Part shown: positions 14,907 to 64,000 of the stretch, one piece after another
How the letters are laid out: each line of letters starts with the position of its first letter
Numbering within the stretch: position 1 is the stretch's first letter
From: Lytechinus pictus
Taxonomy: Eukaryota
DNA length: 64,000 nucleotides
Assembly (NCBI RefSeq): GCF_037042905.1
Contig: NC_087250.1
Span: forward strand, 10,418,001-10,482,000
Reading direction: 5' to 3'
The notes under the pieces: model-generated
Database searches by the model: none
Seen by the model: the letters and a program-made list of their open reading frames with translations, nothing else
Told to the model about the DNA's origin: nothing
Position numbers and translations under genes: made by a program

Positions 14907-14991
14907 ATGCAGGCGACACGAGCATCCCTGTGGGGCTCACTCCTCCTGATAATAGGAGCGACTAATTTGCAGATATCCAACGCTCAAACTG
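14907..14991 (+). CDS. Exon 1: signal peptide [28 protein letters not shown]
   Basis: Basic N-terminus, hydrophobic core, SNA|Q cleavage-like site; donor G|gtaagt, phase 1. Confidence 0.85.
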
Positions 14992-20900: not shown

Positions 20901-23900
20901 GCTATCTTTGAAGACTACACTGCTCAGAAAGTTGCATTATGGGAAAGAACCTAGACAGATATGAGCTATTGTGTGCAATTTAACAGGGAAAAATTAATTC
21001 GCTTGCTCGTAAATTTTCAAGGGATACTCCAAGCTGAATATATTCATATCTAAATAAATAGGGTAAAATTCACAGAGGAAAATGCTTAACACTTCAACAA
21101 AATCGGATAACAAATAACGGAGTCATTTTAAAGTTTGCATTAATCCGGTGAAACAGTTCTAGGTATGCCTTCATGAATATTAGGTGGGCTGATGATGTCA
21201 CATTTGCACTTTCCCTTTTCTTATGTTATTGCATAAAATCATAATTGTTTCATTTTTTCATAAATGCGTATATGTTGTGTCTCCATTATGATGAAATAAG
21301 TTGCAGCAATAAATAACTAATGCACTTAATCAGTTATCAATCCAATCGTTTTAATTCTTGGTAGAACAATTTTGAATAAACATAATTTCATATAATAAAA
21401 TACAGGCCTAGAACTGTTTCACCGGAATAATGCAAATATTTAAAATTCAATAACTTTATTTGTTATCCGATTTTGATCAAATTTTCAGCATTTTGCTGTG
21501 AATTTTATCATATTTATATATATAAATGATTGATTTGATTTAATTATTTCCACGTAATAATCTTTTTTTTCTCAGCATCCGATTATTCATCCTACGATTA
21601 TTCATCCTACGATTACTCATCGTACGATTATTCATCCTACGATTATTCGTCCGATTACTCATCATACGATTATACTTCCGATTACTCATCCTACGATTAT
21701 TCGTCTGATTACTCATCCTACGATTATTCTTCTGATTATTCATCCTTCGATTATTCATCCTACGATTACTCATCCTACGATTATTCATCCTACGATTATT
21801 CATCCTACGATTATTCATCCTACGATTACTCATCCTACGATTATTCATCGTACGATTATTCATCCTACGATTACTCATCCTACGATTATTCATCCTACGA
21901 TTATTCATCCTACGATTATTCATCGTACGGTAAGAATGTCACAGCATTTTCAGAGCCTTATGAACCACCCCTAAATTTTTTTCAAGCCCCCCCCCCTGGA
22001 AATTACGTTGTTATGCTATTATGCATATCACTAGGCCTCTTTTACCAAATAAACAAAGATTCACGTTTCACTAACCTTTTTGGGAGGGGTTTGTGCCTTC
22101 ATTTGGTCTTTTTTTTTTGGGGGGGGGGAATCACCCAGTTTTGCGAGTAAGACTTTTTTTTTCAAAATATTGTTCATGAAAATCACCTTCACTTTTGGAG
22201 TGAAATTTTTTTATTTTTTTAAATTTGTTTATCGAATCCAAGCCACGGCGTGTTTTCTTTCCTTCAGCAATAAATTAACCCACATTGTGCCGAAGTGAAT
22301 GGGAATATGGTAGGAATTTGTTCCTTGAAACGCGGCGCGCGTAACAGCTGCTCTACTGTATAGCGCTTAGAGACTTCTGAAAAAGTAAGTGCACTGGCGG
22401 ATCCGGGGGGGGGGGCACAGCCGGCCTGTGCCCCTCTTTAACAGTGGAGACCTATATTTCGTGGAGGAAATGTCCTTAATTTTTGGTTGGAAACCTTTTT
22501 TTTTTTGCTTGTCAAATTTTTCCTCGGGATAATGCCCCCTCCCCCTTTGGAAAATCTTGGATCCGCCCCTGAGTAAGTATTAAGCGCTCTAGAAGCAAGT
22601 ATAGTTGTTATTATTAGTAGTATATAATAACGGGGAAATACAGAAGAAAATCCTAAAAAACTACAAAATGTAAAAATATATAATGAATGGGTGATAAAAC
22701 TTAAGAGAAACTATGATAATGAAGTTAAACCTAATATTAATAAAATTATAATAGTGGGAGAGAGAAGGTTGAGTTCCGACAGAGCGTTGCTTTTTATTAG
22801 ATCTCCTTCACTTTAATTTCGTGATGCACTGTAGGCCTATATATCTACTATTTGATATTTACATGTAGAATTCACGATTTATGCATAATAGGGTGTTTTC
22901 GCAATTTCAAAGGGGACATATTCTAGAACACAGTAAATCTATTGAAAGTGAAAGTCAAATCACAAAGGAGAGCTGAGAGGCCTTTGTCGAAAGTTGCTGG
23001 ACCTGGACAACATCGGAATTTCTTGACTCTAGACAACGACATATTTGCAGTTGTTCGTCCGGTGCAAATATTCGGATTATCTGCTGTCCAAGTCCACCAA
23101 CTTTCGACAAAAGCCCCGATCAGCTCGCTAATGTGATTTTAATTGCATTTTCAAAGGAATCGATGCGTTGTAGAGGGTTTTCCCGTAGTAAATGCGAAAA
23201 ATACTTTTTCACTTATACGACAAACAATCTTCTCGTTTCATTTCAGCCGAACCTGACATTCGGCTTGTTGGAGGCACCAATGCTCTTGAAGGGCGCGTAG
23301 AGATCAAACACAACGGAGTATGGGGAACGGTCTGTGATGACTCCTTTTATAACAGTGACGCCGAAGTGGTCTGCCGTTCGTTGGGACTAAGTGGCGGGAC
23401 GGTCCGATGCTGTGCAGCGTTCGGTCAAGGGAGCGGGCAGATTTGGCTGGATGATGTGACATGCAGCGGATACTCTGGAGACTCGCTTGGCGGTTGCTAT
23501 CACAGGGGATGGGGAAGCCACAACTGCGCGCACTATGAAGATGTGGGAGTCGTATGCGAACCAGGTAGGCCCCCTATTTACATCAAATTTTCAGGTTTAA
23601 TTACAGATCTTTGAGAATCGAATGGCGGTTCGCGGCGGTTTTCAACCACCATGAGCAAATCAGAACTCACGCATAATTGACGACGTTATCCTCGAGAGAT
23701 TGGAGAGAGTGTGTATGTGTGTGCGTGTGTTATGTTAGGGTGTGTGGGTGAGCGTGTAGTTGCGTGCGTGTGTGTGTGTCGGTGAGGGTAAGGGTTTGTA
23801 GGATTGATTTTGGACAGATATGTATCACTCAAATTATTTAGGTCTGGGACCGACCTAACCGTCACCATATCCCGATAGCGTGACCAGTGTTTCAACCACG

Positions 23901-26900
23901 ACCCTCTGTATCAATATGTAACTTTTCATATATAGCTTGGAATACATGCAGGCGCACGCCAGAACGCCCAGTTAAATGCTGAAGCATCTTAGAGCACCGT
24001 GACGCAAAACGCTTTCAAGAACCTAGAAAATGCTGTCAACTGCCCTCGTTACAAAGAGCAACCAAGAAGTCTTTGTCGAAAATTGGTGAAACAAAACAGC
24101 GGTTTCGTCCTGTTGTTATTGATTGGGTTTGGGGGGCGTTTCGTTCTTTACTCTAGCTGGCTAAACGGCATATTTTCAACGTCTTCGACAGCTCCGAAAC
24201 TTAGGATGAAACTGCTTTTCCGGTAGCCTATTTTCGACAATGACCTCCCAGCAATTAATTGTCATATGACGGCATTTTCAATAGGCCTAGATTTTCTATG
24301 TTCTTGAAAGCGTTATGCAACGCAGTGTGAAATGACAATGGCAATGTCATTGCCATCAGAAGGAGGGCGCTATGAAATGATGACGTCATATTCATCAGGT
24401 CTATTCTAGTACATGTATGATGATTTTGGGAGGACAAACACGGGGTATTAAAAAAGAGCATTGGTTTGTGACAATGGAACAATGACGTTAATAACACGCT
24501 AAAGAGGAAGCCAACATGACCAATAACGTATGTAGTCTCTCGTTATTATAAATAGATATATCAGACTACTAGTAGTAATAAAGATAATTAATTAGCCTAT
24601 AATTTATTTTTCTAGACAAACTAGATTGTTTTGAGATGAAAAACAGGCCTACTTATTTTGCCACTTGGTAATTGTGATATGAATGTATTTAGTACTGAAT
24701 TAGTGTGCTATCATTCGAGTGGGGCTATCTTTGAAGACTACACTGCTCCGAAAGGCGCATTATGGGAAAGAACCTACCCAGATATGAGCTCTTGTGTGCT
24801 ATTTAAAGTGATTGGTTAACATTGGCTTGAATTTCAAAAATTCTGAGCTAGAAGGTCACACTTGTCACCTGTGTCTGTGATATGTTACAAAAATGAAGCC
24901 CAGAAAAAATTGCGTTCGAAAATAATTATTTAGTGCTTCAAAAATTGAAATATAAAGTGACCGAAAACACCACCTTAATATCATCCCATACACTTATGTG
25001 TACTAGGCGTCTATAAGACGCCTATTTACAAAATCGGGGTTTGCCTTGTAGTTTTAGCTTTTCATTCTCAATAATGGTTGTTTTCAGGGTTTATTAGTTC
25101 TAATACATGCACTTGTACACATGTTTCATCTTGGTTTGAGAATTTTTTTAATCGGCTGCTCACAAAGTTAAACAATACCTTTAACAAGGAAAAATTAATT
25201 CGCTTGCTCGTGAATTTTAAAGGGATACTCCAAGCTGAATATATTCATATCTAAATAGGGTAAAATTCACAAAGCAAAATGCTTAAAATTTCATCAAAAT
25301 CAGATAACAAATAACGAAGTTATTGAATTTTAAATTTTGCATTATTCCGGTAAAACAGATCTAGGCATGCCTTCATGAATATTCATTAGGTGGGCTGATG
25401 ATGTCACATTCACACTTTCCCTTTTCTTATGTTATTGCATAAAATCATGATTGTTTCATAATTTTCATAAATGTGTATTTGTTTTGTCTCCATCATGATG
25501 AAATAAGTTGCAGCAATAAATAACTAATGCACTTAATCAGTTATCAATCCATTCGTTTGAATTCTTGGTAGAAATATTTTGAACATAGTTTCATATAATA
25601 AAAAAAGGCCTAGAACTGTTTCACCGGAATAATGCAAATATTTTAAATTCAATAACTTTATTTGTTATCCGATTTTGATCAAATTTCAGCATTTTGCTCT
25701 GTGAATTTTATCATATTCATTGAGATATAAATATTTGATTTGATTGAATTATTTCCACATTTCCATACCAAAAGTATATACAAGTGTAATAATCTTTTTT
25801 TCTCAGCATGTGATTATTCATCGTATGATTATTCATCGTACGATTACTCATCGTACGATTACTCATCCGATTACTCATCCTACGATTATTCATCCTACGA
25901 TTACTCATCCTACGATTATTCGTCCGATTACTCATCCTACGATTACTCATCCTATGATTACTCATCCTACGATTATTCGTCCTACGATTACTCATCCTAC
26001 GATTACTCATCCTATGATTATTCATCGTACGATTATTCATCCTCCGATTACTCATCCTACGATTACTCATCCTACGATTACTCATCCTACGATTATTCAT
26101 CATATGGTAAGAATGTCACAACATTTTCAGGGCCTAATGAAATAAATCCACATTTATCTTTAAAATGTGCGCTGGATCATAACAACTAACCTCATGTAAT
26201 TTATTCTGTCAGTTTTGACCTATGGGGGTTAAATAGGCAAGAAATTGAGGTCTTAAGCAAGTATTATCTTCTAATGGGAATGCATTCAAAGGTCCTTCTT
26301 GTGTATAATTTTATGCTGATTCCAAATATATTAGTCTTAATGACCCTATTTAACCGCTTGTGGTCATTTTGGTCATTTATGTCCCTCAAAATGACCAATA
26401 ATACAAGTTCAATTTATCTAAAAGTACTTTGAATGTTACCAACCAGAATCGCTACGAGGGTATGTTGTGACAACTAACACTGGTGTATTAATCCTTTGAA
26501 TTGAACATCTCAAAAGTATTTTGACCTCATGTCACTTATTCAATCAGTTTTGACCTATGAGGGTCATCTTGGGTACTTTAGACATAACTGACCATTCGCG
26601 CAATTTTGCATAATAAACTGCAAATCGACAAGAATTTGAGGTCTTCAGCGTGTATCTTCTAAATGGGAATGCATTTAAAGGTCCTTCTTGTGTAGAATTT
26701 TATGCTGATTCCAAATATATCAGTCTTAATGACCCTATATAACCGCTTATGGTCATTTTGGTCATTTATGTCCCTCAAAATGACCAATAATACAAGTTCA
26801 ATTTATCCAAAAATACTTCAAATGATACCAGAATCGTTAGAAGGGGGGCGTGCTTTGACACCAAGCATTTGTTTATTAATTCTTTAATTTAATTTCATTA

Positions 26901-41900: not shown

Positions 41901-44719
41901 TCTTTCGATTGAGTTACAAATGTGACTGCTTGCTTTTACACAGGAACGGATTATTCATATTTTGATTCCTGGGCCGATTATGATTCCTGGTCCTATTGCA
42001 TAAAAGTTACCAATATGGCAACTTTGCCATGCAATGGTAACTTGCATGGAATCCTTGATTTTGGTTGGCTGTTGATCAGTGTTACCATGGTAGTTACCAT
42101 AGGACATGTAGGATGGCAAAGTTACCACAATAGTAACTCTTATGCAGCAGGGCCCATGCAAGTCCGACAACTGACCTTCCTACTCCTGGCCATCCGAGCA
42201 TGTATAGAATCAAATAACCATGGTTTCCAAGTTGAAAAATAAATGCTGACTAAAACAAAGCTTCAAACAATTCATTCTTTCGATTGAGTTTCGATGTGAC
42301 TGCTTGCCCTTATACCCAGATTTCGATTATGGTTCCTGGTCCTATTATGATTCCTGGTCCTATTATGATTCCTGGTCCGACTACTGGCCTTCGTACTCCT
42401 ACTGGCCCTCCGAGCCTGACAGTGGTACTTGCATGAATATGTGTTCCTGCGGCGAGACTGGCGACGGCGGGATCGACCAATGTAGATCTGGAGACTGCTA
42501 CTGCGATGACATCTGCAAACGTTTCGGCGACTGTTGCTTAGATAAGGACTACTACTGCCCAGTGCAAGGTATTTCACCTACATTAATTTGTTATTACAGT
42601 GTGTCCCACAAAAAAAGAGGAAACCGGGAGGTTATTTTTTTACAACATAACCAAAAGATTTTATGTCTGTCATTCAGAACATCATAGACTTCAACCTCTC
42701 CTCTTCATTTTGATACCAACAAAGTATGATATGAGTAGTTTAGGCAAAGATAAGCAAGAAGAGTTTGAAAAGTTAACGTCGAAACCATGTTGTGCAAGAA
42801 AATGAGTCGATATTTGTTTAGGACGCACAGACCCGGGGGGCGTTTCATGAAAGGACTTGTCGGACGTTTTATCCGACAAGTCCCATTTTATCCGACAGTT
42901 ACCATAGTAACAGTACCTCTCAGCCAATCAACATCAGAGAAAGATGTCAGATCTGACAACTTGTCGGATGAAAATGTTGATGAAACACTCCCCTGGCGTA
43001 GAAAAGGAATGGCTCGTTAGCATGTATCTTGTATTCTTTGTAGTTTTCTTTCACTAATCTCTTAATGAGAGATGATGCAGATACAAGTGTGAGTTTCCGC
43101 GCAAGTTGTTTCCAGCAGGCTTCAGAATTTATTGTTTTTACTCCGCAGTGCGTGATCAATTCAGTAAATGTTTGGTCTCGAAAAAAAAAAAAAGTAATAT
43201 TCTTACAGTTGTTGATGTTAAATTTATGATTGAGACATATCCAATTATTGCGATATAACCTTACTTCACAGGCGGGATTTTTGTGTGGGACGCACTGTAT
43301 TGGTCTAAATCAAACGTTAATCGCGCTAAGGATAACGTAATAACTTGCTGTCTCCATAATCGATACATGATAACAATGCATTTTGCGACCATAATTCAAC
43401 GTTGAACTCAGGTGTCCCCCTCCCACTCTCATTACTTTCCTCAAGTGATATTGTCCTATCAATTTGTTTTTACATTTTTCCTGAGCGCGGGGGGGGGGGG
43501 TTAAAATTTGTTTATGCGTTATAGAAGTATGTTTTATTATCATTATTATTATCATCTGTGATTCGGCCAATACTATACTTCCTTAATTAACTTTTGATTG
43601 CGTTGAGCGTTAACTAAAATCGAAATGGCGTTTTAAAAAGGGAATTTATTATCAATATCGTTCTCACAATTATTGTTTTTAACATTTTGACCTATTTTTT
43701 GGTTGATTTATTTTGATTTAGAATCAGGACTAGATGGCGGCCTATACTACATTGAGAAAGTCCAAGAGTTACCGGTAAGTGTTTTGTGTTAGACCACCTC
43801 TAAACAGACCTCTGCATGGCGTAATGGGAGAGAGGGCAAAGAGCCCCCCCCCCCCCCCTAAAACACCAAAAACACAGAAAAAATATAGAAAGTAAAAATA
43901 GAAATAAATGAAGAAAAAAAAAAGTTGCTCTACCAAAAATGAGAAAAAGTAAAGTAAGACGGGCGAAATATAACACTGTCTTCTAAATCTATTGTCAAAT
44001 TCTTTTCTTTGTATGTAGAGGGACAACAATTTAATAGCATCATATATATCAATACGATGTACAAAGTCGAGACAAGTAATTTCAAGGAGGGTCAACATAC
44101 AGTAGTGCTAAAAAGTTAGTGAACCCTATAAATGCACCCCTTCATGCTGAGTGTTGAGTGAAGACAACAACACTACAATGTCTGATGAGCCATGAGAAAT
44201 AGAAACAAACTTTATTGAATGTAATATTTTATCACCTGACATCACAATTAAATATCTAATACATGGCAGAACTAGAACACTTGAAATATGTTCATTTTCT
44301 GATGGTGCTCACTAATGTTTTAGCACCACTCTATATGAGCTGATTCGAATACAAAGAAAAAATGCAAACAAGCATAACACTGAAAATTCCATCAAAATCG
44401 GATGTAAAATAAGAAAGTTATAATATTTACAGTTTCGCTTCATTTCACAATTTCTTATCCTGTCGATATAAGTAAATAAGGAAACAGTTGTATGATGATA
44501 CCATTCAATTACTTTTGTTATTGTTTATGAAAAAAAAATCAGGTTCACGTCCGACGACGACGCGCAGCTGAGGGACAAAAGCGCCGAGCTCGCCGATCAG
44601 GCCCTAAAGAGGTCGACCAGGAAAGAGCCCGAAGACGAGAGGACCAAGCAAAGCGCCTTGAGGGACGCCGAGCTCGCGCTGCGGAGAAGGCAAGACGAGT
44701 GCGACAAGCCGAAGCCTAA
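14907..44719 (+). CDS. 17-exon gene for a secreted mosaic protein: 3xSRCR, 2 DYSSY repeat blocks, 5xLDLa, SMB-like domain, Arg-rich tail (956 aa predicted)
   Basis: All 17 exons have GT-AG boundaries and join in frame; summed length is 2871 nt; signal peptide present; no hydrophobic TM segment. Confidence 0.8.
16723..17037 (+). CDS. Exon 2: SRCR domain 1 (6 Cys, group A pattern)
   Basis: [28 protein letters not shown]...[17 protein letters not shown]; 315 nt, phase 1-1; missed by the ORF track. Confidence 0.95.
17080..17210. repeat. (AAT)n microsatellite
   Basis: Visible directly. Confidence 0.9.
18499..18809. mobile_element. Palindromic MITE with CAG target duplication (Harbinger-like)
   Basis: TIR gcccgtattctgaagt; empty site in the duplicate at about 22931; second copy at 39256-39565. 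Confidence 0.8.
19523..19840 (+). CDS. Exon 3: SRCR domain 2
   Basis: [44 protein letters not shown]; ttccag acceptor, CAG|gtattt donor; 318 nt. Confidence 0.93.
21576..21929 (+). CDS. Exon 4: coding tandem repeat, 24 DYSSY/DYSS units
   Basis: ttttctcag acceptor and G|gtaaga donor; 354 nt, phase 1-1; 15/12-nt units vary mostly at third codon positions in this frame. Confidence 0.88.
23247..23564 (+). CDS. Exon 5: SRCR domain 3 (duplicate of exon 3)
   Basis: 8 nt differences from exon 3 over 318 nt; tttcag acceptor, CAG|gtaggc donor. Confidence 0.95.
24807..25180. mobile_element. TTAA-flanked insertion (Kolobok-like) specific to duplicate copy 2
   Basis: Single TTAA at the paralogous site near 20980; two TTAA here. 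Confidence 0.8.
25807..26106 (+). CDS. Exon 6: coding tandem repeat, 20 DYSSY/DYSS units
   Basis: Same splice sites as exon 4; 300 nt, phase 1-1; begins ACDYSSY. Confidence 0.88.
27969..28209. mobile_element. MITE with CACTGCAAAAACTC TIRs and TA flanks
   Basis: Near-perfect hairpin; further copies at 37042-37283 and split at 58211-62243. Confidence 0.85.
28499..29587. mobile_element. ~1.1-kb non-autonomous TIR element
   Basis: cagtcagacggcaggtcc ... ggacctgcggtctgactg; TTTA on both sides. Confidence 0.7.
29692..29802 (+). CDS. Exon 7: LDLa module 1 ([35 protein letters not shown])
   Basis: 6-Cys LDL-receptor class A pattern; (CT)n-tag acceptor, gtaaga donor; 111 nt. Confidence 0.93.
31740..31787 (+). 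CDS. Exon 8: 48-nt linker micro-exon ([16 protein letters not shown])
   Basis: Pyrimidine tract plus acag acceptor, A|gtaagt donor, phase 1-1; paralogous to exon 11. Confidence 0.75.
32762..32791 (+). CDS. Exon 9: 30-nt linker micro-exon ([10 protein letters not shown])
   Basis: ttttag acceptor, G|gtatgt donor, phase 1-1; repeats the PWTT motif of exon 8. Confidence 0.6.
33895..34005 (+). CDS. Exon 10: LDLa module 2 ([35 protein letters not shown])
   Basis: 6-Cys LDLa; paralog of exon 7; 111 nt, phase 1-1. Confidence 0.93.
34509..34562 (+). CDS. Exon 11: 54-nt linker micro-exon ([18 protein letters not shown])
   Basis: ttttgtag acceptor, G|gtaagt donor, phase 1-1. Confidence 0.78.
36322..36429 (+). 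CDS. Exon 12: LDLa module 3 ([35 protein letters not shown])
   Basis: 6-Cys LDLa; taaag acceptor, G|gtgagt donor; 108 nt. Confidence 0.92.
37042..37283. mobile_element. MITE with CACTGCAAAAACTC TIRs and TA flanks
   Basis: Long inverted arms. Confidence 0.85.
38703..38828 (+). CDS. Exon 13: 4-Cys LDLa-like module 4 ([42 protein letters not shown])
   Basis: DCSDHSDE motif; catag acceptor, A|gtaaga donor; 126 nt. Confidence 0.85.
39256..39565. mobile_element. Palindromic MITE, same family as 18499
   Basis: gcccgtattctgaagtcggg ... cccgacttcagaatacgggc; CTG flanks. Confidence 0.8.
39763..40299. mobile_element. TIR element with 8-9 bp target duplication (G)ATGTTAAA (Mutator/hAT-like)
   Basis: ggccacttacattgacgagtg ... 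cactcgtcaatggaagtggcc; a related fragment lies at 1-385. Confidence 0.75.
40925..41038 (+). CDS. Exon 14: LDLa module 5 ([37 protein letters not shown])
   Basis: 6-Cys LDLa; ctcag acceptor, G|gtaagc donor; 114 nt. Confidence 0.92.
41944..42202 (+). pseudogene. Disrupted partial duplicate of the 5' part of exon 15 ([16 protein letters not shown]...), interrupted by a MITE
   Basis: Upstream intron 41864-41943 matches 42241-42319; after the MITE, tccgacaactga replaces tccgactactgg (Trp to stop). Confidence 0.65.
41988..42155. mobile_element. Small MITE inside the pseudo-exon
   Basis: tgcataaaagttac ... gtaactcttatgca inverted ends; related to 30441-30601. Confidence 0.7.
42320..42568 (+). CDS. 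Exon 15: YYDSWS repeats plus somatomedin-B-like domain (10 Cys)
   Basis: [24 protein letters not shown] signature; cccag acceptor, AAG|gtattt donor; 249 nt, phase 1-1. Confidence 0.9.
42597..43297. mobile_element. Tc1/mariner-type MITE (TA flanks) with a nested small MITE at about 42833-42995
   Basis: ta|cagtgtgtcccaca ... tgtgggacgcactg|ta. Confidence 0.75.
43722..43774 (+). CDS. Exon 16: [18 protein letters not shown] (phase 1 to 0)
   Basis: tttag acceptor, CCG|gtaagt donor; 53 nt. Confidence 0.72.
44099..44332. mobile_element. Tc1/mariner-type MITE
   Basis: cagtagtgctaaaaagttagtga ... tcactaatgttttagcaccact. Confidence 0.55.
44543..44719 (+). CDS. Exon 17: terminal Arg-rich tail [58 protein letters not shown]
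   Basis: atcag acceptor; GC-rich island ends at TAA 44717-44719; frame set by the phase-0 end of exon 16. Confidence 0.7.
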   Translation, partial: VHVRRRRAAEGQKRRARRSGPKEVDQERARRREDQAKRLEGRRARAAEKARRVRQAEA

Positions 44720-45272: not shown

Positions 45273-45301
45273 AATAAATTATTGTGAACGAGAAAAATAA
45301 A
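45273..45301 (+). terminator. Candidate polyadenylation signals (AATAAA at 45273 and 45296)
   Basis: Canonical hexamers about 550 nt after the stop, followed by GT/T-rich sequence. Confidence 0.35.
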
Positions 45302-46832: not shown

Positions 46833-49698
46833 ATATTGTACCATTTAGCTGTGTGTAGTATGTAGCTGTATGTTCAACATGATCAATGATCACGATGATG
46901 CATACTTCTGATTTTTGTCAAACAATCTCTGTTATATTTGTGTTACATATTATATTGTTAAGCAGAAGCGATGATTAAATTAAATCAAATTAGATGAGAA
47001 GAGTCATATAGAAAATGTTTTACCGCCCTTATTTGTTGCCATTGCTACACGGTGCTAGAAAATGCCTATTTAGATGCCATTAACAATAAAAGTCCATACA
47101 CTTTTATAGATATTTGAACCTTTTGTTCTGTATTTGGAACTTTTTTAAGGTTTTCAAAGACTAAGAAAAGGGTTCTAAACAGTCCTTTAGAAATATTTTC
47201 GGTTCTAAAAGGAACCTTTTAATGTTCTTTATACCTCTCATTGGGGTTCTTAATGCTGTATATATCCTACCATTTTTGTATAGGGACCTTTATACCACCT
47301 ATAGTTTTTTCCCTTTTACTTGAAGAGCCCACTTTATATAACCTTAAAAGGATTCATTGCTGAACCCTAATGTTCTAAAGTACTCTGTTTAGGACCCCTT
47401 TTTGCTTATTTGAAGAAATGTTAAATGTTCCAAATACGAGGCGAAGGAAGGTTCTAATAAAGTTTCTTGTTTCTTTCTAAGAGTTTACCGTTAGAGGGGG
47501 CGGCTCCCGCGTGGCTGCACCTTCCTTCAGTGTATTCCGCACACATGAATATTGCCTTTCTTTGTTGACGGTTTATGATGAAAAGAATATGACTTTGACC
47601 AGCATCCACGTCTCCATAGCGCGATGGCGGCCTTTTCACCAATTACAGTTGATAAATTCTGGAGATAAGGCGTCGATAGAGAATTGGTAGAGGTAACTTC
47701 ACATTAGAGTGAATGTGTATTTGAAACGAATGGAAGCGAAATTAATAACACGTTTACCCTGTCGTGTGATCCGTTACGATTGGCCTTCCATAGCCGTGAC
47801 ACAACATTTCCTCGGGCGGCAACTGCTCCGGGCTTTGTTGCGTCTAGGATATAGGGTGTGGGTTGCATAATATTATATGTTAGATTAAAGGCCCCCTCAC
47901 ACCTAACCGAATTGCCGTAAATATGCCTTGCGATGGCTGGCGAAAGGCATTTTCAAACAAATCGTTTTCAATAGTAACTAATAGTAAATCATATTTACCC
48001 TTCGTGTTTGGGTTCGTACATTCTTTGAACTAACAGCTGCAATTATTCAAATTCGCGCAGACATTTTGAACATGTAAACAATTTCCCGACGAATTGAAAA
48101 ATCGTTGGTCATCTGTACTGTTTGAATTCGCATCTCTTATTTAGTCTGCGGTAATCGTTTGTTTTTGTCGCGCAAAGTCCCTCTTCGGGCTTTGCCAAAG
48201 TTAATTGTTACGTAATTAGTGTCATTTTAATCTTTATTGCTGCGTCATGGTTGCCATGCATATTTGCGCATAATGATAATAATAATAATCATAAGAGTTG
48301 CGCGCGCTTTATCAATAATTGTCATTGTTTGAGTATTAACGTTTTGCATGCGGTACACGGAAAAGGGCTGCGTCCAGTTCAGTTTTGCAGAAAGCAACAG
48401 AAAGCCATATTTGAATGTTATCTGCATGAACCGCTTAATCTACAAAATAATTCTGCTGATCATTATTAATCGACAATCATCTATCAAATAGTTTTTTAAA
48501 TCGTATTTGAAACTCGTCCTGTCATCGTTGTTCGCCGTATCAGCATATTGGAAACTCCTCTTAAATAGAGGCAGCCACAGTTAAAGAGGAATAATTGAGG
48601 GAATTGTATATTACAATTTATATCCTACATAGAGTAAATCCTGTATAGTGATTGGTTTAAGTAGCATCATGTGACCTAATATATTTCAACTATGATGTTG
48701 CGTGACGTCAGACCTCGATATATCATACAGATATTGCCTACCTAGAGTTTGAATATAACATTTCCTCTCCCCGACGGAGTTATATTTTTCCCAAGGGATT
48801 ATATTTTGCCCGAAGCGTTCAGCGCTGAGGGAAAATATTATCCCGAATATAGCTTCGAATATAGCTTCGGAGGGGAGTTGAAATGTTATTTATTAAAACG
48901 ATAGACCAGGCAATATTTGTTATATTATATAGTCTATGTGGAATCGCCATCAGAAATTGCATTCATCATCTGGCTCAAACCTGAAATTCTTGCTACAGCT
49001 CTAATCCATCTACGTCATAATAGATTTTTTTTTTTAAATACATCAAGCGCGTACTTCATGCAATTGACGCGTTAACATTAGCGCGTTCATCAAAAACTAC
49101 CTTGTTACGCAACTTGTATGCAGCGAGTGACGTCACCTTAGTGAATATAACGCCGCAATTGACAATACAACGCAGTATATTCCCTGAGGTGACGTCAAAA
49201 CCTAGAATATAACAAATGCGATCCTCGCAGTTATGGTCACGTGGTGGTGTATTGACCTATCACTGATTCGAATCTACATAACCTATGTAATATTTTTGGA
49301 TATATCGAGGTCTGACGTCATTATTTCGCAAAACTGGATATCGAGCTAAACTCTCGGGCGCACCGGCCAGCGCGCTCTCTCTCCCGGGCAAGTCCAGCTA
49401 TGCGTCGGCGCAGGCACTAATCTGCGTTCCGCTGAGCGCGGTGGCTCGGAGAAAAGTAGGTTATTCAACTCAACTAACCGGACTTTGCAAGCTCAACGCA
49501 TAGATTTTGGTTGTAAATTATAAAAAGTAGGATATAAAACAAATATACCAGGCGTTTCATTCGAAAGCATAGTGGGAATTATTAATCCTCGGTTGGACTG
49601 GCAAAACTACTATATTTCCCTCGGGGCTTCGCCCCTCGGATAAGTAATTCCACTATACTTTATCAAAGCCTGATATATTTGTTTAATATGAAATGGAT

Positions 49699-49739: not shown

Positions 49740-50703
49740 CTGCACGGAAACGCTAATAGAGCGTTTTCGCTCCATGACACACGACAAACTCAAGAACAAT
49801 GAAAAAGTATTGTCGAATGCAATTGAAAGAAAGAAGTCTTTCTCATAATTCTGAATCAAAACAACAATTTCGTCCTGGACTCGGGATAAATGACATTTTT
49901 GCCATTTTTCGTCAGCTCCGAAACTTAGGACGAAATTGCTGTTCCGGTTCACCAATTTTCGACACAGATCTCCCTGCTGTTCTTTGTTATTCGAAGAACA
50001 TGTTAAATATTTTTACAGTGATCTTGAATCCATTGCGCGTCGCGAGTGAAAACCTGCTCAAAAAGGCACCTGTTACGAATCAATGTTGCCGCGATACCAT
50101 ATAGGGATTTTTCGCAACCGCTAAAGAGACGCATTCGGGAACGTAGAGAATCTATTGTCAAAAGCCCTTCATGACAAAACAGTTCTTGTCGAAAATCAGT
50201 GAATCATGATTCTGGACATGCAGGCAACAAACTTGCAAGCTTTCTTCAACTCCGAATCTCAAGACGATCTGCTATCCCGGTTGTGTTTTTTGGGGGGTCA
50301 TTACTTGTGCACCAGACACGAGAGAGCAGAGGGAATGACGTTAAAGGTTTTTTTTTTGAGACTTTGAACCACATGACAAATCTTGGACTTTTTCAAATTG
50401 CCAAAATTTTTAATTTGAAAATTATTTGAAACTCGAACCTGCGCCATAAACTCGACTGCAGGAATGACTTGTTGATTGATCCACACCAATTGAGCTGATC
50501 GAGGGGTCGGAAATAAGCATATCTCCCGACGTTTCGTGTTCATTAATATGTATGAGGCGTAGTCTGATTAAATAAAACCTTTTATATCGTCATTCACACT
50601 GCCTATCGGGTCGGAAGCACAAGTACTGACGAAAAAATATCCAATAAGAAAAAAAGAAGGCCATTCGCAAAAACAAAAACAAAAACCAAAGGCCTATACT
50701 CAC

Positions 50704-50814
50704 AACAATTTAGTTCATCTGCTCGGTTAATGCAATGCGGGAACCCATCGCAAACGTACAGTTGTGCCACGCACATACCGTTGCATAGCACATAGTTAGG
50801 ATAGCTCTCGCATT
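50704..50814 (-). CDS. Second LDLa exon of the minus-strand gene (CESYPNYVLCNGMCVAQLYVCDGFPHCINRADELNC)
   Basis: ttctaaag acceptor, T|gtgagt donor; 111 nt, phase 1-1; 6 Cys. Confidence 0.85.
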
Positions 50815-50934
50815 CTTTAGAAGAATAGAATAAAGAACAAAGAAGACATTATGTACATGTACATCAATATTATCAGTACATCGGAGAGGGAAGTTCAGTT
50901 TAGCTGGAAATTCCAGTTCTGCTGTCGATCTTAA

Positions 50935-52342: not shown

Positions 52343-52777
52343 TTATATCGATTGGCAATGGTTCGAACTTCCTAATGTGGTTAATACGCGATAATTTATA
52401 GAACAAAGTTTAGTTACAATAAATCAGGGTTGCTTGAAATTGATCATTTCATTATACCTTGTGCTTTTCGTGTAGAGAAGGTACCATTTTGATTGATCAC
52501 TAAACAGTTGTGTTACGGAGCTCTGATGCACTATTACAACCCCACACAGTTAAAACACTGTTTGAAATTGTATACACCGTTGTTTACTAATTATAAAACT
52601 TAAAGTTGTTTAACAATTTAAACACCATGCTTGATTTATTGATAATTAATTATTTAAAAATTAAACGTTGTGGTTTTAGACTTTAAACACTTAATCAAAC
52701 TGTTTAAACAACGACTGTAAGTTTCATATAGTAAACAGCGTTGTGCAGTTTGTACAGGATATGACGTAGAGGCTTAC

Positions 52778-52894
52778 TTCCGGTTTCGCAATATAATTCG
52801 TCTTCGCCCGCTAGACAATCGTCGATGTTATCACACAGCTTGGTTATTGGCAAGCACTTACGGTTCCAACAAGCGAATTCATCGTATCGACATA
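52778..52894 (-). CDS. LDLa exon of a convergent minus-strand gene (CRYDEFACWNRKCLPITKLCDNIDDCLAGEDELYCETG)
   Basis: ttattgcag acceptor, A|gtaagc donor; 117 nt, phase 1-1; not in the ORF track. Confidence 0.88.
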
Positions 52895-53450
52895 CTGCAA
52901 TAAAAATGAAAAGAAAAGTGTTTTTAAACCCCGGGGAGTAGTAAAATAAATAGATAAATAGATATTACGTTCTACAACCAGAAAAACAAAGAAGAAAACA
53001 AAAGTTTGAGAACAATTATGTATAAATATTCAAATCAACTCTTTAACTCTGAACTCTTTTGTTTTCGCTCTTCTTCCGCCTTATCTCGTCTTCTGTCCGA
53101 TCCCATTTTTCTTTTGTTTCTACTTTAAAAAATCTTAGAGGGGGCAGTCACCCCCAACGTCCTCAGGGACCTGGGAAAGATTTTTTTCAGTGGGGATGCT
53201 GAAATCTCTACTCAAAGGGGGGGGGGAGAACACATCCAGGTTTATATATTATTCAATTTTCATGTACATGATGTATATGCCTATATACAGAATTTGGTAT
53301 TTATATATATATATTGTGATGATTTTCACTAAATCTAATGCAATTTGTAATGATGAGTAATTTTTATATAATTACTTTGATGAAACTGGATATAATGCTT
53401 ATGACCTGAACTCAGAAAGAGATCCTTCAAGACAGAGCTTTGGAAATATA

Positions 53451-58277: not shown

Positions 58278-61200
58278 TTGCTTGTTTGTTTGTATTTATT
58301 TCCATATAAAACAAAATTATATACATAATCAAATTACAAGAAGAAAAAGAAAAATCGTCAAATGAAATATGGAGGATTGCCCATTTCAGCGGCATTAATA
58401 TAATGCCGCTGTTCTTCCATGTGGTCCTTTGCAACGTAAACATGGTAAATACGTATTATAAAAAAAACCACAATACTTAATCAGATACATTACAAGAAAA
58501 AAAATGCAAACACTAAAACTAACTTACGGTTAAAAAATATCCCATTGTGAAAATGCCCCCCTCCCCTTTAACCCACCCTACTATTGATTACCTAAAAGCC
58601 CAATTTAGTCTGTTATTACACCGGTTACTATCGTATGGCAGTGAATAAGGGATTGCGGATTTCAAATATCAAAATAGACAAAAAAATTATGAACGTGTTT
58701 ATTAAATATATTAAGTGTGTCCAGCTGGCGTAGCTTGAGTGGTAGTTTATTGTACAAGACAGATCCACGATATAAGAATGTAAGTTTACATTGATTTGTT
58801 CTTGGTTTAGGAAGCGTTAGGTTTGAATTTGATCTTAGTCCATAGTGCTTTTCGTTAAAAACAAATTTATCAGTCATATAATCGGGCGTTAACTTATGGA
58901 ATGTTTTAAATAATAATGCGTACATGTGTCTCCTACGACGAGACTTTAGAGTTTCCCACTTCAACATATGGTGAATGTGATGAACTGATTTATGTTCATA
59001 GGGGTTGACTCGAAGAATAATTCTTCCCGCTCTATTCTGGAGCTTCTGGATTTGATGAAGATAATTTGTATTGGTTCTTTGCCAAACAGTGTCCGCATAA
59101 TCGAAATGGGGTAAAATCACAGAAGAATAAATCAATTTGAGATTTGACTCGTTAATAAAATATCTCATTCTCCTTAGAAAACCAATAATTTTCCCAATCT
59201 TTTTGTTCAGTTGCTCTATATGAATATTCCATTTAAGTTCAGGGTCCAAATTTAATCCAAGATATTTGAAATTCGTCACTTGATTTAGTCTAGCTGAGTT
59301 TAACTTGATATTGAGAGTATGACGTTTAGAAAACATACTCTTTGTTCCAATTAACATACACACTGTTTTACTAGAGTTTATCATGAGTCTATTTATATTC
59401 ATCCAAGACTGGAGGTTACCTAACTCTTCATTTAATACAGATTGAATGTCATCAACATCATTATGGGAATAATACAGAACCGTATCATCGGCATAGAAAT
59501 GCAACTTACACTTTGTAAAGAACAATGGTAAATCGTTAATGAAAATCAAGAACAACAGCGGGCCTATTATTGACCCCTGAGGCACTCCATAATCAATTGA
59601 AGTTACAATACGCCTATTTATGAGATAGTCCTGGAACCATTTCAATGTTGTTCCATGAATGCCAATATGAGAGAGTTTTTTTAATAAGGACATGGTGGTC
59701 GACAGTATCAAATGCCTTATGTAAATCTACAAAGACACATCCAGTATATTTCCCTCGATCCAGCACTTTAAGCCACTCATCAGTCACCTTGATTAGAGCA
59801 GTAGTTGTGGAGTGCTTCGCCCTGAAGCCCGATTGTTCGTTTACTAGTAAATCATTGTCATTCAAGTAACGGAGTAATTGTTTTTGAACAACCTTCTATA
59901 AAAGTTTCGAGACACAACAATAATGATATGGGCCTGTAATTATCCGGTTCACATTTATCGCCTTTCTTGTGCAGTGGTATAATTTTGGCAATTTTCCATT
60001 GGGAGGGAACAATACCATCTCATATTGATTTATTAATTAGATATGCAATTATTTGATAAATTTCAGTTGCACAAGTTTTTAATACATAAGAACTGATTCC
60101 ATCCAGCCCGACTGATTTCTTATTCTTAAGACTGTATATTTCTTTCAATACGACCGTTTCGGAAACTGTCGATAGTTTAAAATTGATTTCAAAACGACTA
60201 GGCAATAGGTTTCCCATACCATTATTTGCAACATTACACATTTGTGAGATATTAGCATCATTACCTGCATGTTAAACATTGGCAACACTGGCAAAATGAC
60301 TATTAAAATGATTTGCAGTTTCAAAAGTATCATGAGTCAAACTCGAAATAGATGACAGGGAAGTTTTGTTGGGTAGGAGAGATTTAAGAGTTGGCCAAGT
60401 TTGGTTTCTGTCTTTAGTTTCAGTCAGCTTATCGCAAAAATATTTTCTTTTAAGTTTTCTGTTTTCATATGTAACTTTATTTTTCAACTGTTTATAGTTT
60501 TTCCAATATAGATCACTGTTATTAATCTTTGCCTTTTGTTTCATTTTATCTCGTTTCTTCATCAATTCAAAAATATGTTCGTTCAACCAAGGGGAGTGTT
60601 TTTTTCTCACTCGCTTAGTTTTGATTGGCATGTATTTATTAACTACATCCAACAGAATTTCCTGCCATCTATCGACAGCGTCATCCACACTGTCCATTTC
60701 TTTTACAATAGACCAGTCAATGTCCTCGATTTCAGCTTTAAAAGCATTTAAATCTATACCTTTTGACTTACGAAATGTGACGAACTTAGACTTAGAGGCG
60801 TTATCATTTGATTGATGAGCATTCAAAATTAAGAAACTCATGGAGTGGTCACTAAGACCGTTATGAATTACACCATAAGAATGTACATTTTCTCGACAGT
60901 TCGTTATAATATGATCAACAAGTGTTGAAGAATCTTTGCATATTCTTGTGTATTCGGAAGTATTTATTTGTTTCAGACCATAAACAGCATTTAGTTGGTT
61001 GTATCGTTTACATCCACTTGTCGGTGGTTGTTTTAAGATATCAAAATTAATATCTCCCATAAGAACGATAGGTGTATTAAATCCATCAAGAAATGTTAAC
61101 ATAGTTTCATAGTAATCAAGCGTATCACATGTGGAGCTAGGAGGGCGATACCATGTGGCAAATATGAACGGTTTATCTCTTTTTAAATCAATTTGTAGTG

Positions 61201-62064
61201 ACAAAGTTTCTATCTTATATGGGGAAGCAGGCTTCAATTGATGAAAAATTAAACTATTGTGAACATAGATAGCTACCCCGCCACCTTTTCTGTCACGATC
61301 ATTTCGAACAATAGAATATTGAGGTATATAGATCTCTGCATCATTGATACTATCGTCTAATCTTGTTTCATTCAGAGCTAATAAATGAATATCATTACTG
61401 CACAAAATTGATTTTATTTCGTCAAAATGTTTGAAAAGACTGACGACGTTCAGATGTAGGCATTTTATTCCACTCTTAGAAAGCTGGTCGTATTTCAGCC
61501 CCAAATTATGGACAATATTCCCATCTAATTCTTTATTTGGATTATAAGATACACTTGTAGAAATTTTACTTTCACCATAAAACGGTAAATGTTTCATTGC
61601 ACACTGTGGACATTCCCAATTCAAGAACATTTCTGTGTTATCATCGTATAATTTAACTGGCACCAGAGCACATGATACGTGAATCAAATTTTTACATTGC
61701 GTACATAAAAGGCCCCTTTCATTTGATTTTACAGACTTCCTACATAATCCGCATGGATATTTCCTTACCATTAAAACAATTCTTATCAAATTTAGCTTAA
61801 AAGAAGTGGAGTTCCCAAGATAAATAAATTAGCAAAAACTACGTAAACAGGTTAGATATACAATTTACAAATGTCGAAAATTGACAGTCAATAGAAAAAA
61901 AAATGTTAAAATTAAAAAAAAAGCAATGGGTTTGTTTTCGTTAGAATGATACACCACATACGATGCCATCACAATTCACAAATCATAAATTCATCAACGG
62001 AAAAGATGTTTCTCACACCTTTTTAAAATCCTCGACGGACTTGATCAATTTCTTACTGGTTTCC
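58278..62064 (-). mobile_element. Near full-length CR1/L2-group LINE: PHD finger + APE endonuclease + reverse transcriptase, frameshifted
   Basis: C4HC3 PHD; HLNVVSL/NETRLD/GDIN/SDH endonuclease motifs; QSGFR, DLHKAFDTV, GVPQGS and YADD RT motifs; (CAAA)n-like tail. Confidence 0.92.
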
Positions 62065-62289
62065 AAGTATTGAAACAACACCAGTTTGGAATCAAACCGA
62101 TGCTGTTTTGATACTAATTGGTGTTGTATAAACACCTATCTGGTGTTAGACCAAAACGAAGCTGGTGTTGTTTAACACTTCTCTGGTGTGGACATATATA
62201 GATTCCGGGCTGGTGTTAAATCAACACCGGAGTTTTTGCAGTGTACGCATTACCCCCTCGCTTTCCAGGGCATTAAACATACATCCTAT

Positions 62290-64000
62290 TTATATCAGTA
62301 ACTAAGGATCTAGAACCTCTTGACAAGAACAGATTGCCTGCATACTTGCCTTCAAATTCAAAATGCCCAGGAGTTCAACAATATGAAGTATACAATGCCC
62401 TTCGAAAGATAAAGAGCAATAAAGCAGGTTTGAAGGAAGACCTTCCACCTCGCATTTTACGTGAATTTGCTTATGAATTTAGTAAACCTGTAACAAATAT
62501 CTTAAATGCATCTTTTAATTTAGGTATTGTACCATGGCAGTGGAAAAAAAAAGTCAAATTGTTCCTCTCCCAAAGTCACAACCCCCTACTATTACTCAAC
62601 TACGCCCAATTGCTCTAACAAGCCGTCTCTCTAAAATAGCAGAATCCTTTATTGTTAAATGGCTTTTGGAAGATGTTTCTCAATGTATTGATTTAAACCA
62701 ATGTGGCAACATTCCTGGATTATCAACATCGCATTATCTCATCAAATTATTACACCGTATTTTAGAAAATTGTGAGAAACCCAAATCTATATCAACTATT
62801 ATTTGTACTGATTTTTCCAAAGCGTTTGACAAGTTGGACCATAATATTTTGGTTAGAAAATTAATTGATTTTAGAGTTAGACCGTTTATTATTGATTGGA
62901 TCATTAGTTTTTTAGAACAAAGATCTCAGTGCGTAAAATATCAGAATAACTTTTCAGAATATGTAACCACCCACGCCGGAGTGCCCCAAGGCACAAAATT
63001 AGGACCCATTTTATTTTTGATTATGTTTAATGATGCTTGTCAAGAACAATTGTTGCCTTATTTCAAATACGTTGATGATCTCACGTTACTTGAGAACAGA
63101 AACTTACAAAAACTATCAATTTTCCAAAATGTATTAGATGATTTATTAGAATGGACAGACAGTAATCATATGACACTAAATCCTAGTAAGTGTATGGCAA
63201 TGAACATAACATTTATGAAAAATGCACCCTTATGTGAGTCTTTGCATATCGGCTAATCAGAACTGCCTTGTGTTGATACCTTAAAGATTTTAGGAGTTTA
63301 TATCCAACATAATTTAAAATGGGACTTCCATATAAATGAAATGTTAAAAAGTGCAATAAAAAGCTCTATATGTTTAGATTAGTGAAAAAATATAAATTAC
63401 CAATTTCTGACTTAATACAAATATATATCGGATACATCCGCCCTGTTTTAGAATATTGTGTGCCTGTGTTTATTAATCGAAGTTTAACTTTAGATCATGT
63501 ACAGAAACTAGAAAGAATCCAGAAAAGAGTTTGTAAAATTATCTTAGGCAAAAGTTATTCAACTTATGAAGATGCTTTAAAACGATGCAAACTGGTTACA
63601 CTAAAAGATAGACGTGAGCAATTATTATGCTCTGATTTTGCAGTATCTGTAAGCAAAAATCCACATTGTAAAAACTGGTTACCGGAAAGGAACGTTGTTG
63701 GCATGACTTTACGCAATAAACAAAAGTATATGCAATACAAATGCAGGACCTCCCGTTTTAAACATAGTGCAATACCGTATTTTATTGATCTTCTTAATAA
63801 CTCGTAAAGTGTATATTTTCATTGTAATTTCAATGTATACTGGGATTTTTTTAATGTACCATTAGTTTTATCGTCATTACATAATTGTTTTATGCTACAT
63901 GTGCAATTGTTATACCTTTGTAAATACATACATTTCAGCGTTTTAGCTGCAGTATGTGTATGACTGTTTTTACTGGAAATAAATAAACCATGAAATGAAT
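62290..64000 (+). mobile_element. 5'-truncated non-LTR retrotransposon (RT with YVDD), disrupted
   Basis: LRPIALT, DFSKAFD, GVPQGTKLGP and YVDD motifs; frameshift and stop; AATAAA plus short tail at the window end. Confidence 0.9.

Follow-up and report, generated by a model that had tools for sequence, protein, structure and literature searches.

What does a 58-residue, arginine-rich peptide do at the end of a protein that is otherwise strongly acidic? We address this question for a gene of Lytechinus pictus that lies on the forward strand of contig NC_087250.1, within a window of 64,000 nucleotides (nt; RefSeq assembly GCF_037042905.1, positions 10,418,001 to 10,482,000) to which all coordinates below refer. 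The last coding exon of this gene (44543-44719) had been singled out by an initial annotation, made from the letters alone, as an Arg-rich C-terminal peptide behind furin-type sites. We demonstrate that this tail is a spliced, in-frame C-terminus that carries half of the basic residues of its protein, and we tentatively favour, as a possibility to be taken seriously, the reading that it is a cationic tether on a very acidic secreted protein, one that a convertase could remove.

Retranslation of the exon reproduced the reported composition exactly, giving 58 amino acids (19 Arg, 4 Lys and 9 acidic residues, namely 7 Glu and 2 Asp; net charge +14) followed by a TAA stop, and the motifs lie where they had been placed, RRRR at tail residues 4-7 and RARR at 15-18 and 28-31. 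Because the last 58 of the 919 positions of the mature protein hold 23 of its 47 basic residues (hypergeometric p = 1e-17), the basic character of the tail is real. The exons that determine its frame are as follows.

42320..42568, forward strand: exon for a Tyr/Trp/Ser/Asp-rich repeat and a somatomedin-B-like (SMB-like) Cys domain, delimited by contig joints
43722..43774, forward strand: 53-nt linker exon, entered in phase 1 and left in phase 0, which sets the tail frame; delimited by contig joints
44543..44719, forward strand: 58-residue basic tail with its stop codon, coded by the terminal exon behind a phase-0 acceptor; joint 43774>44543, with the tail also present in P0007 and P0003-P0005
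44720..45293, forward strand: 3' untranslated region with AATAAA at 45273; contig ends at 45293 (X17) and 45292 (X18)

Two spliced contigs from one study, X17 (depth 254) and X18 (a single gap-free record of 1789 nt), support these boundaries through the joints 41038>42320, 42568>43722 and 43774>44543, the last two of which span GT..AG introns; the library type is not on record, and the joints are those of spliced molecules. As the upstream domain exon exits in phase 1 and the 53-nt exon in phase 0, it is the Arg frame that is read in the tail. The initial annotation had held that its proposal would fall if transcripts read this exon in another frame or left it unspliced to its upstream neighbour, probably our linker exon, which it called exon 16; since the spliced contigs and the L. 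variegatus models fix the Arg frame, that objection fails. In X21 and X22, two runs of raw RNA of which about 6% of the reads were used, depth fell on repeats and hardly at all on the exons; these runs have no bearing on function. Skipping of the 53-nt exon would bring the last exon into phase 1, with a stop after about 9 residues and hence a tail-less protein; no such joint occurs among the 15 of 102 joints listed from the four runs mapped, and minor isoforms are possible. A second in-frame acceptor 6 nt downstream fits the shorter linker of P0003.

The same tail, in the same frame and with the same stop, ends four RefSeq models, P0007 of L. pictus (XP_054757710.1) and P0003, P0004 and P0005 of L. 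variegatus. The models of this gene are XP_054757710.1, XP_054757269.1 and XP_054757274.1 in L. pictus, where the gene is fragmented across models and the tail is unannotated, and XP_041467340.1, XP_041466862.1 and XP_041466863.1 ('DMBT1-like') in L. variegatus. Identity of the tail to the RefSeq models is 55-57 of 58 residues (55 of 58 for L. variegatus). A further L. pictus model, P0002, starts in the Arg frame and shifts frame inside the terminal exon, presumably through a model or assembly error. The L. variegatus models form two differently numbered sets, P0003 on the one hand and P0004 and P0005 on the other; these have identical tails and differ slightly in the linker, the SMB-like part and the last LDLa, which suggests two near-identical gene copies or haplotypes. 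No second copy of the tail lies within the window.

Within the tail, three R-X-[KR]-R cores (P1, the residue before the cut, at tail residues 7, 18 and 31) and a predicted helix can be laid out.

44552..44563, forward strand: candidate site 1, RRRR then AA, where a cut would remove 51 residues; identical in the five intact-tail proteins and in a low-confidence, unstructured part of the model
44579..44596, forward strand: candidate site 2, KRRARR then S, after which the window and X18 have G, and the X17 allele, P0007 and L. variegatus have V; X17 carries 44601 G>T
44624..44635, forward strand: third RARR, a poor site within the predicted helix (AlphaFold model), then RE (window) or LE (L. variegatus)
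44606..44713, forward strand: predicted single alpha-helix, tail residues 22-57 (P0007 142-177; pLDDT, the predicted local distance difference test, about 93 over 151-170)
44569..44677, forward strand: imperfect repeat, 44569-44593 against 44659-44677, with 19 matches and an in-frame gap of 6 bases in a DNA self-alignment

The residue after the cut (P1') is Ala at site 1 and Ser at site 2, whereas Arg or Leu at site 3 is not the small residue expected there; the furin motif, as outlined in PMC3281273, covers 20 residues and includes a preference for Ser at P1' and flexible flanks. Sites 1 and 2 both lie within tail residues 1-18 (9 basic, 1 acidic), outside the predicted helix, in a stretch (residues 1-21) to which the single-sequence model assigns no secondary structure at low to middling pLDDT. 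The model thus pictures the tail as an exposed, unstructured polybasic stretch with two furin-type sites followed by a charged helix. At sites 1 and 2 the five intact tails show no variation on the P side, and all four observed changes fall elsewhere; RRRR in particular, whose conservation the initial annotation had proposed as a check, is identical in all five, drawn from two close Lytechinus species. Outside the tail, the remaining 1129 residues of P0003 have a single dibasic pair and lack R-X-[KR]-R altogether. The furin-type sites first proposed therefore hold up in part: sites 1 and 2, with their small P1' residues and predicted lack of structure, are compatible with furin, while site 3 is poor and the number of motifs is at chance, as set out below.

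Given these features, we propose that RRRR or KRRARR would be cut, in a fraction of the molecules or in all of them, by a furin-like convertase acting late in the secretory pathway. Chains with the tail still attached would bind polyanions electrostatically, be they sulfated matrix or cell-surface glycans, microbial surfaces or the acidic segments of neighbouring copies, and cut molecules, being fully acidic, would diffuse freely. The tether reading is supported by the frame and C-terminal position of the tail, its retention in two species at an identity similar to that of the SRCR domains and not below that of the LDLa domains, the invariant P-side residues, the lack of R-X-[KR]-R elsewhere in P0003, the placement of the sites and the precedents of SOD3 and insulin-like growth factors (IGFs). 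According to the account of SOD3 in PMC12774472, its C-terminal RKKRRR binds heparan sulfate, and removal by furin before secretion shifts the protein from matrix to fluid. The parallel, as far as that account goes, lies in a secreted host (here a predicted one) that ends in a short basic tail, with a furin site (here a candidate one) in the basic cluster, so that removal before secretion would alter where the protein resides. The urchin tail differs in being longer (58 residues), in having two to three candidate sites, and in that most of its length, including a helix of charge +6, lies downstream of the sites; it also lacks sequence similarity in Pfam, in the tail word index and in the PDB, so that the comparison is one of working principle only. 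PMC8286064, in its passages on echinoderm IGFs, describes Arg/Lys-rich C-terminal extensions without obvious convertase sites and the removal of the IGF E-domain by furin in vertebrates. What the urchin tail shares with these extensions is charge, richness in Arg, poor conservation and a place at the C-terminus of a protein that is secreted (here by prediction); the host, however, is unrelated, the urchin tail has two good candidate sites where the echinoderm IGF tails described there have none obvious, and the LDLa repeats, binding to which was proposed for the IGF tails, here sit in the same chain as the tail. Judged by its sequence, the tail is homologous to neither the SOD3 tail nor the IGF E-domain.

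Several observations weigh against the tether reading. The tail has 3 R-X-[KR]-R motifs where composition shuffles lead one to expect 2.1 (p = 0.35), and one RRRR where the expectation is 0.5 (p = 0.33); the number of furin motifs is what chance gives for such a composition and is no evidence in itself, even if the two copies of RARR (p = 0.036 in shuffles) and the two sites with two uncharged, non-proline residues past the cut (0.41 expected, p = 0.05) are less easily reached. Conservation of the tail between the window and L. variegatus (55 of 58) is not significantly above that of the SRCR (293 of 313; Fisher p = 1.0) or LDLa (158 of 184; p = 0.10) domains. Both base differences of the X17 allele change a residue (G20V and R43Q; the window and X18 have Gly at residue 20, where X17, P0007 and L. 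variegatus have Val), and an Arg is swapped in three of the four tail changes known, consistent with loose constraint. The carriers are two close species only, and deep conservation of the sites cannot be shown for this reason. Finally, disorder is only weakly indicated by low pLDDT when the model is built from a single sequence.

Another explanation is that the tail is a loosely constrained, lineage-specific sequence without a dedicated job, possibly a stretch once read in the +1 frame and captured as a last exon, with its Arg richness and furin motifs as by-products. In support of this, guanine-plus-cytosine (GC) content at the three codon positions runs 0.86/0.60/0.45 when the Arg frame is read and 0.60/0.45/0.84 for the +1 reading, the latter being the usual shape of a gene rich in GC at third positions (GC3); CGA accounts for 10 of the 19 Arg codons, as expected from a shifted reading; and the +1 frame is open for 69 codons. 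The chance-level motif count fits as well, as does the failure to find relatives outside Lytechinus. Word-index searches, which are weak for long proteins and in which coverage of other urchins is unchecked, gave matches for 2 of 30 candidates with the SMB-like exon, 2 of 2089 with the tail and 2 of 2339 with P0007, none of them outside the two Lytechinus clusters. A metagenome scan returned 302 pattern matches, of which 0 were confirmed; the Atlas held no usable match for linker plus tail; a PDB sequence search gave 7 matches at E 0.32-4.4, none usable and none below E 0.3; and there is no Pfam family for the tail.

Against such an origin, the +1 peptide has 0 matches among 1.84 billion representatives and none in Pfam or the Atlas. 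The +1-frame GC3 run stops at the stop codon of the Arg frame (49 of 57 before against 4 of 12 after, p = 5e-4), and codon choice relative to the gene's other exons favours the Arg frame (log-likelihood +0.7, as against -5.8 for the +1 frame). The sole one-base route to the Leu found at residue 32 in L. variegatus, as deduced from the protein, would create a stop in the +1 frame, and the Arg frame yields a confidently predicted helix. As the current product, the +1 frame is ruled out by the spliced contigs, the orthologs, the absent +1 matches and the codon evidence; since no outgroup was found, there is room for an old frame switch. Overall, we consider a loosely constrained or captured tail unlikely.

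The helix invites a different explanation, in which it forms a short coiled coil joining chains and the upstream sites release it after assembly, in the manner of a C-terminal assembly propeptide. AlphaFold, run on P0007 without an alignment, was poor overall (mean pLDDT 49), yet predicted one helix of 36 residues, and of eight heptad core positions small hydrophobic residues occupy seven in L. variegatus (p = 0.008) and six in the window (p = 0.048), a weak Ala/Leu/Val heptad that was tested post hoc. Against this, Ala predominates in the core, where both species share an Arg at one position and L. pictus has Arg at two; the net charge of the helix is +4 to +6, the helical part (residues 19-58) having 14 basic and 8 acidic residues; and its many acid-base pairs at i+3 and i+4 (20 possible ion pairs in the whole tail) suit a lone helix. 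A complex prediction for three chains of L. variegatus residues 1148-1187, from the tail, scored 0.05 without folded controls and counts neither way. We regard a coiled coil as improbable. The tail had also been described as containing an internal imperfect repeat, EGQKRRAR/EGRRAR. Both copies are present, at residues 10-17 and 40-45, and the repeat is weak: the DNA self-alignment is marginal (p = 0.028 in codon shuffles), and the longest exact amino-acid repeat is 4 residues (p = 0.46).

What kind of protein does the tail complete? The exon model comprises 16 exons from 14907 to 44719 on the forward strand and translates into 946 residues with no internal stops; its first 14 introns are in phase 1 and the last is in phase 0. 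The contig check covered the last four exons, among which the last LDLa exon is the sole LDLa exon, and the model further upstream derives from splice signals and orthologs. The domain order is a signal-like start, SRCR, SRCR, DYSSY, SRCR, DYSSY and five LDLa modules with two short linkers, followed by the Tyr/Trp-rich repeat and SMB-like domain, the 53-nt linker exon and the Arg-rich tail. The upstream exons are as follows.

14907..14991, forward strand: first coding exon, signal-peptide-like as judged by eye; start shared with P0006
16723..26106, forward strand: three SRCR exons (16723, 19523, 23247) and two DYSSY-repeat exons (21576-21929, 25807-26106), by homology to P0003 and P0006
29692..41038, forward strand: five LDLa exons (29692, 33895, 36322, 38703, 40925), matching five LDLa stretches in the ortholog P0003
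29692..41038, forward strand: two short Thr/Pro/Trp linker exons (31740, 34509) among the LDLa exons, from the exon model

The Pfam match to Somatomedin_B is below cut-off (E 0.32), and we therefore use the label SMB-like only. The signal-peptide-like start and the extracellular Cys domains are hints of secretion, and the host appears to be a very acidic secreted protein of scavenger type with a predicted signal start. That the tail is its true C-terminus, as first proposed, is borne out by the spliced contigs and the orthologs. The name 'DMBT1-like' derives from the SRCR domains alone (four stretches in P0003, three exons in the window). DMBT1 is defined by CUB and C-terminal ZP domains as well, and in a Pfam scan of P0003 reaching to E = 1 the sole families matched were Ldl_recept_a and three of SRCR type, with no CUB or ZP. 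No paper naming the gene or its protein accessions, and no title or abstract opening on this protein among those listed, was found in a search whose scope lay outside subscription journals and supplements, and the main text of PMC11688612 makes no mention of DMBT1 or this locus tag.

Several variations in the repeats and exons of this gene were observed. The DYSSY repeats are longer in L. variegatus, where they form three blocks and the SRCR and DYSSY exon pair occurs three times as against twice here; their sequence would make them candidate sites for dityrosine cross-links, Tyr sulfation and Ser phosphorylation. The length of the Tyr-Asp-Ser-Trp-Ser-Tyr repeat at 42320-42400 (forward strand) varies, the X17 contig and P0007 being one 18-nt unit shorter and X18 agreeing with the window. 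The opening part of the SMB-like exon is partially duplicated at 41944-42000 (forward strand); this copy has an acceptor of its own, is truncated by a high-copy repeat around 42000-42155 and is bypassed in the X17 and X18 contigs (41038>42320); it is probably a dead duplicated exon, and the exon count of the initial annotation may include it.

The charge of the host bears on a further idea, that the tail acts as a C-terminal propeptide or self-ligand that folds onto, or bridges, the protein's own acidic parts (the LDLa calcium cages or the DYSSY repeats) in storage and is then cut to unmask them. Opposite charges do coexist within one chain, and LDLa modules, as described in PMC3304490, bind neighbouring Lys/Arg pairs, which are abundant in the tail; the proposal for echinoderm IGF tails and LDLa repeats (PMC8286064) is similar. 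The body, however, has 24 basic and 160 acidic residues (-136), and the two DYSSY exons (117 and 99 residues) have 44 acidic residues, all Asp, and no basic ones (-44), so that +14 offsets about one tenth of the former and about one third of the latter, before any sulfation or phosphorylation that the repeats may carry. Because of this imbalance, neutralisation of the acidic repeats during storage, as the initial annotation had suggested, is unsupported in cis as a full account. In addition, the combination of Trp and DxDxD, tied to strong ligand binding in the LDLa modules treated in PMC3304490, occurs in one of the five modules, where a RAP-like LDLa ligand would call for at least two; three of the remaining modules have DxxxD and one NxxxD. 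We find a self-ligand of this kind distinctly unlikely. A more elaborate version would make the protein a one-chain polyampholyte with a furin-gated self-ligand: its helix would bind the DYSSY repeats (possibly sulfated or phosphorylated) or the first LDLa of other copies, so that the protein condenses in storage or as a gel outside the cell, and cutting at the two sites would switch it between condensed and soluble states, the whole being genus-specific and perhaps derived from a stretch of another frame. To this version we give little credence.

The initial annotation had also raised the possibility of released cationic, possibly antimicrobial, peptides. Cuts at both sites could release an antimicrobial or signalling 11-mer (net +4) and 40-mer (net +6), and the SRCR domains of the host belong to a family tied to urchin immunity (PMC11688612, on another SRCR gene). 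The urchin antimicrobial peptides covered in PMC4805251, centrocins and strongylocins, are likewise cationic peptides from secreted precursors (here a candidate release only), but they come from small dedicated precursors, contain Trp and Cys and are 29-42% hydrophobic. The urchin tail instead offers a polyampholyte helix: bulky hydrophobic residues make up 0% of the 11-mer and 7% of the 40-mer (27% including Ala), Trp, Phe and Cys are absent, the 40-mer has 8 acidic residues, and the C-terminus lacks a Gly-Lys/Arg amidation pattern. With a hydrophobic content so far below that of known urchin peptides, an antimicrobial role is very unlikely.

Elsewhere in the window, a putative neighbouring gene on the reverse strand would take in 52770-52900, 50690-50830 and 48440-48560, with two LDLa-like exons and, near 48.5 kb, a candidate last exon that would encode KRS followed by an acidic stretch. 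Two broken elements of LINE (long interspersed nuclear element) type, at 58662-61828 (reverse strand) and 62277-63807 (forward strand), contain endonuclease and reverse-transcriptase-like frames, and one of them starts with a Cys-rich, PHD-like part; these were named by eye.

Altogether, the removable cationic tether, which we favour tentatively, would extend a known mechanism by one case, in a protein newly given this design, and would not constitute a new mechanism; only a role of the tail in driving self-assembly, together with the acidic Tyr/Ser repeats of its own protein, would make it more surprising. The host is an urchin that is emerging as a genetic model, and a single short exon with two adjacent sites is convenient to test. 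If cleavage is real, this gene would provide a clean invertebrate case in which a clip-off basic tail sets retention versus diffusion of an immune-type or matrix protein.

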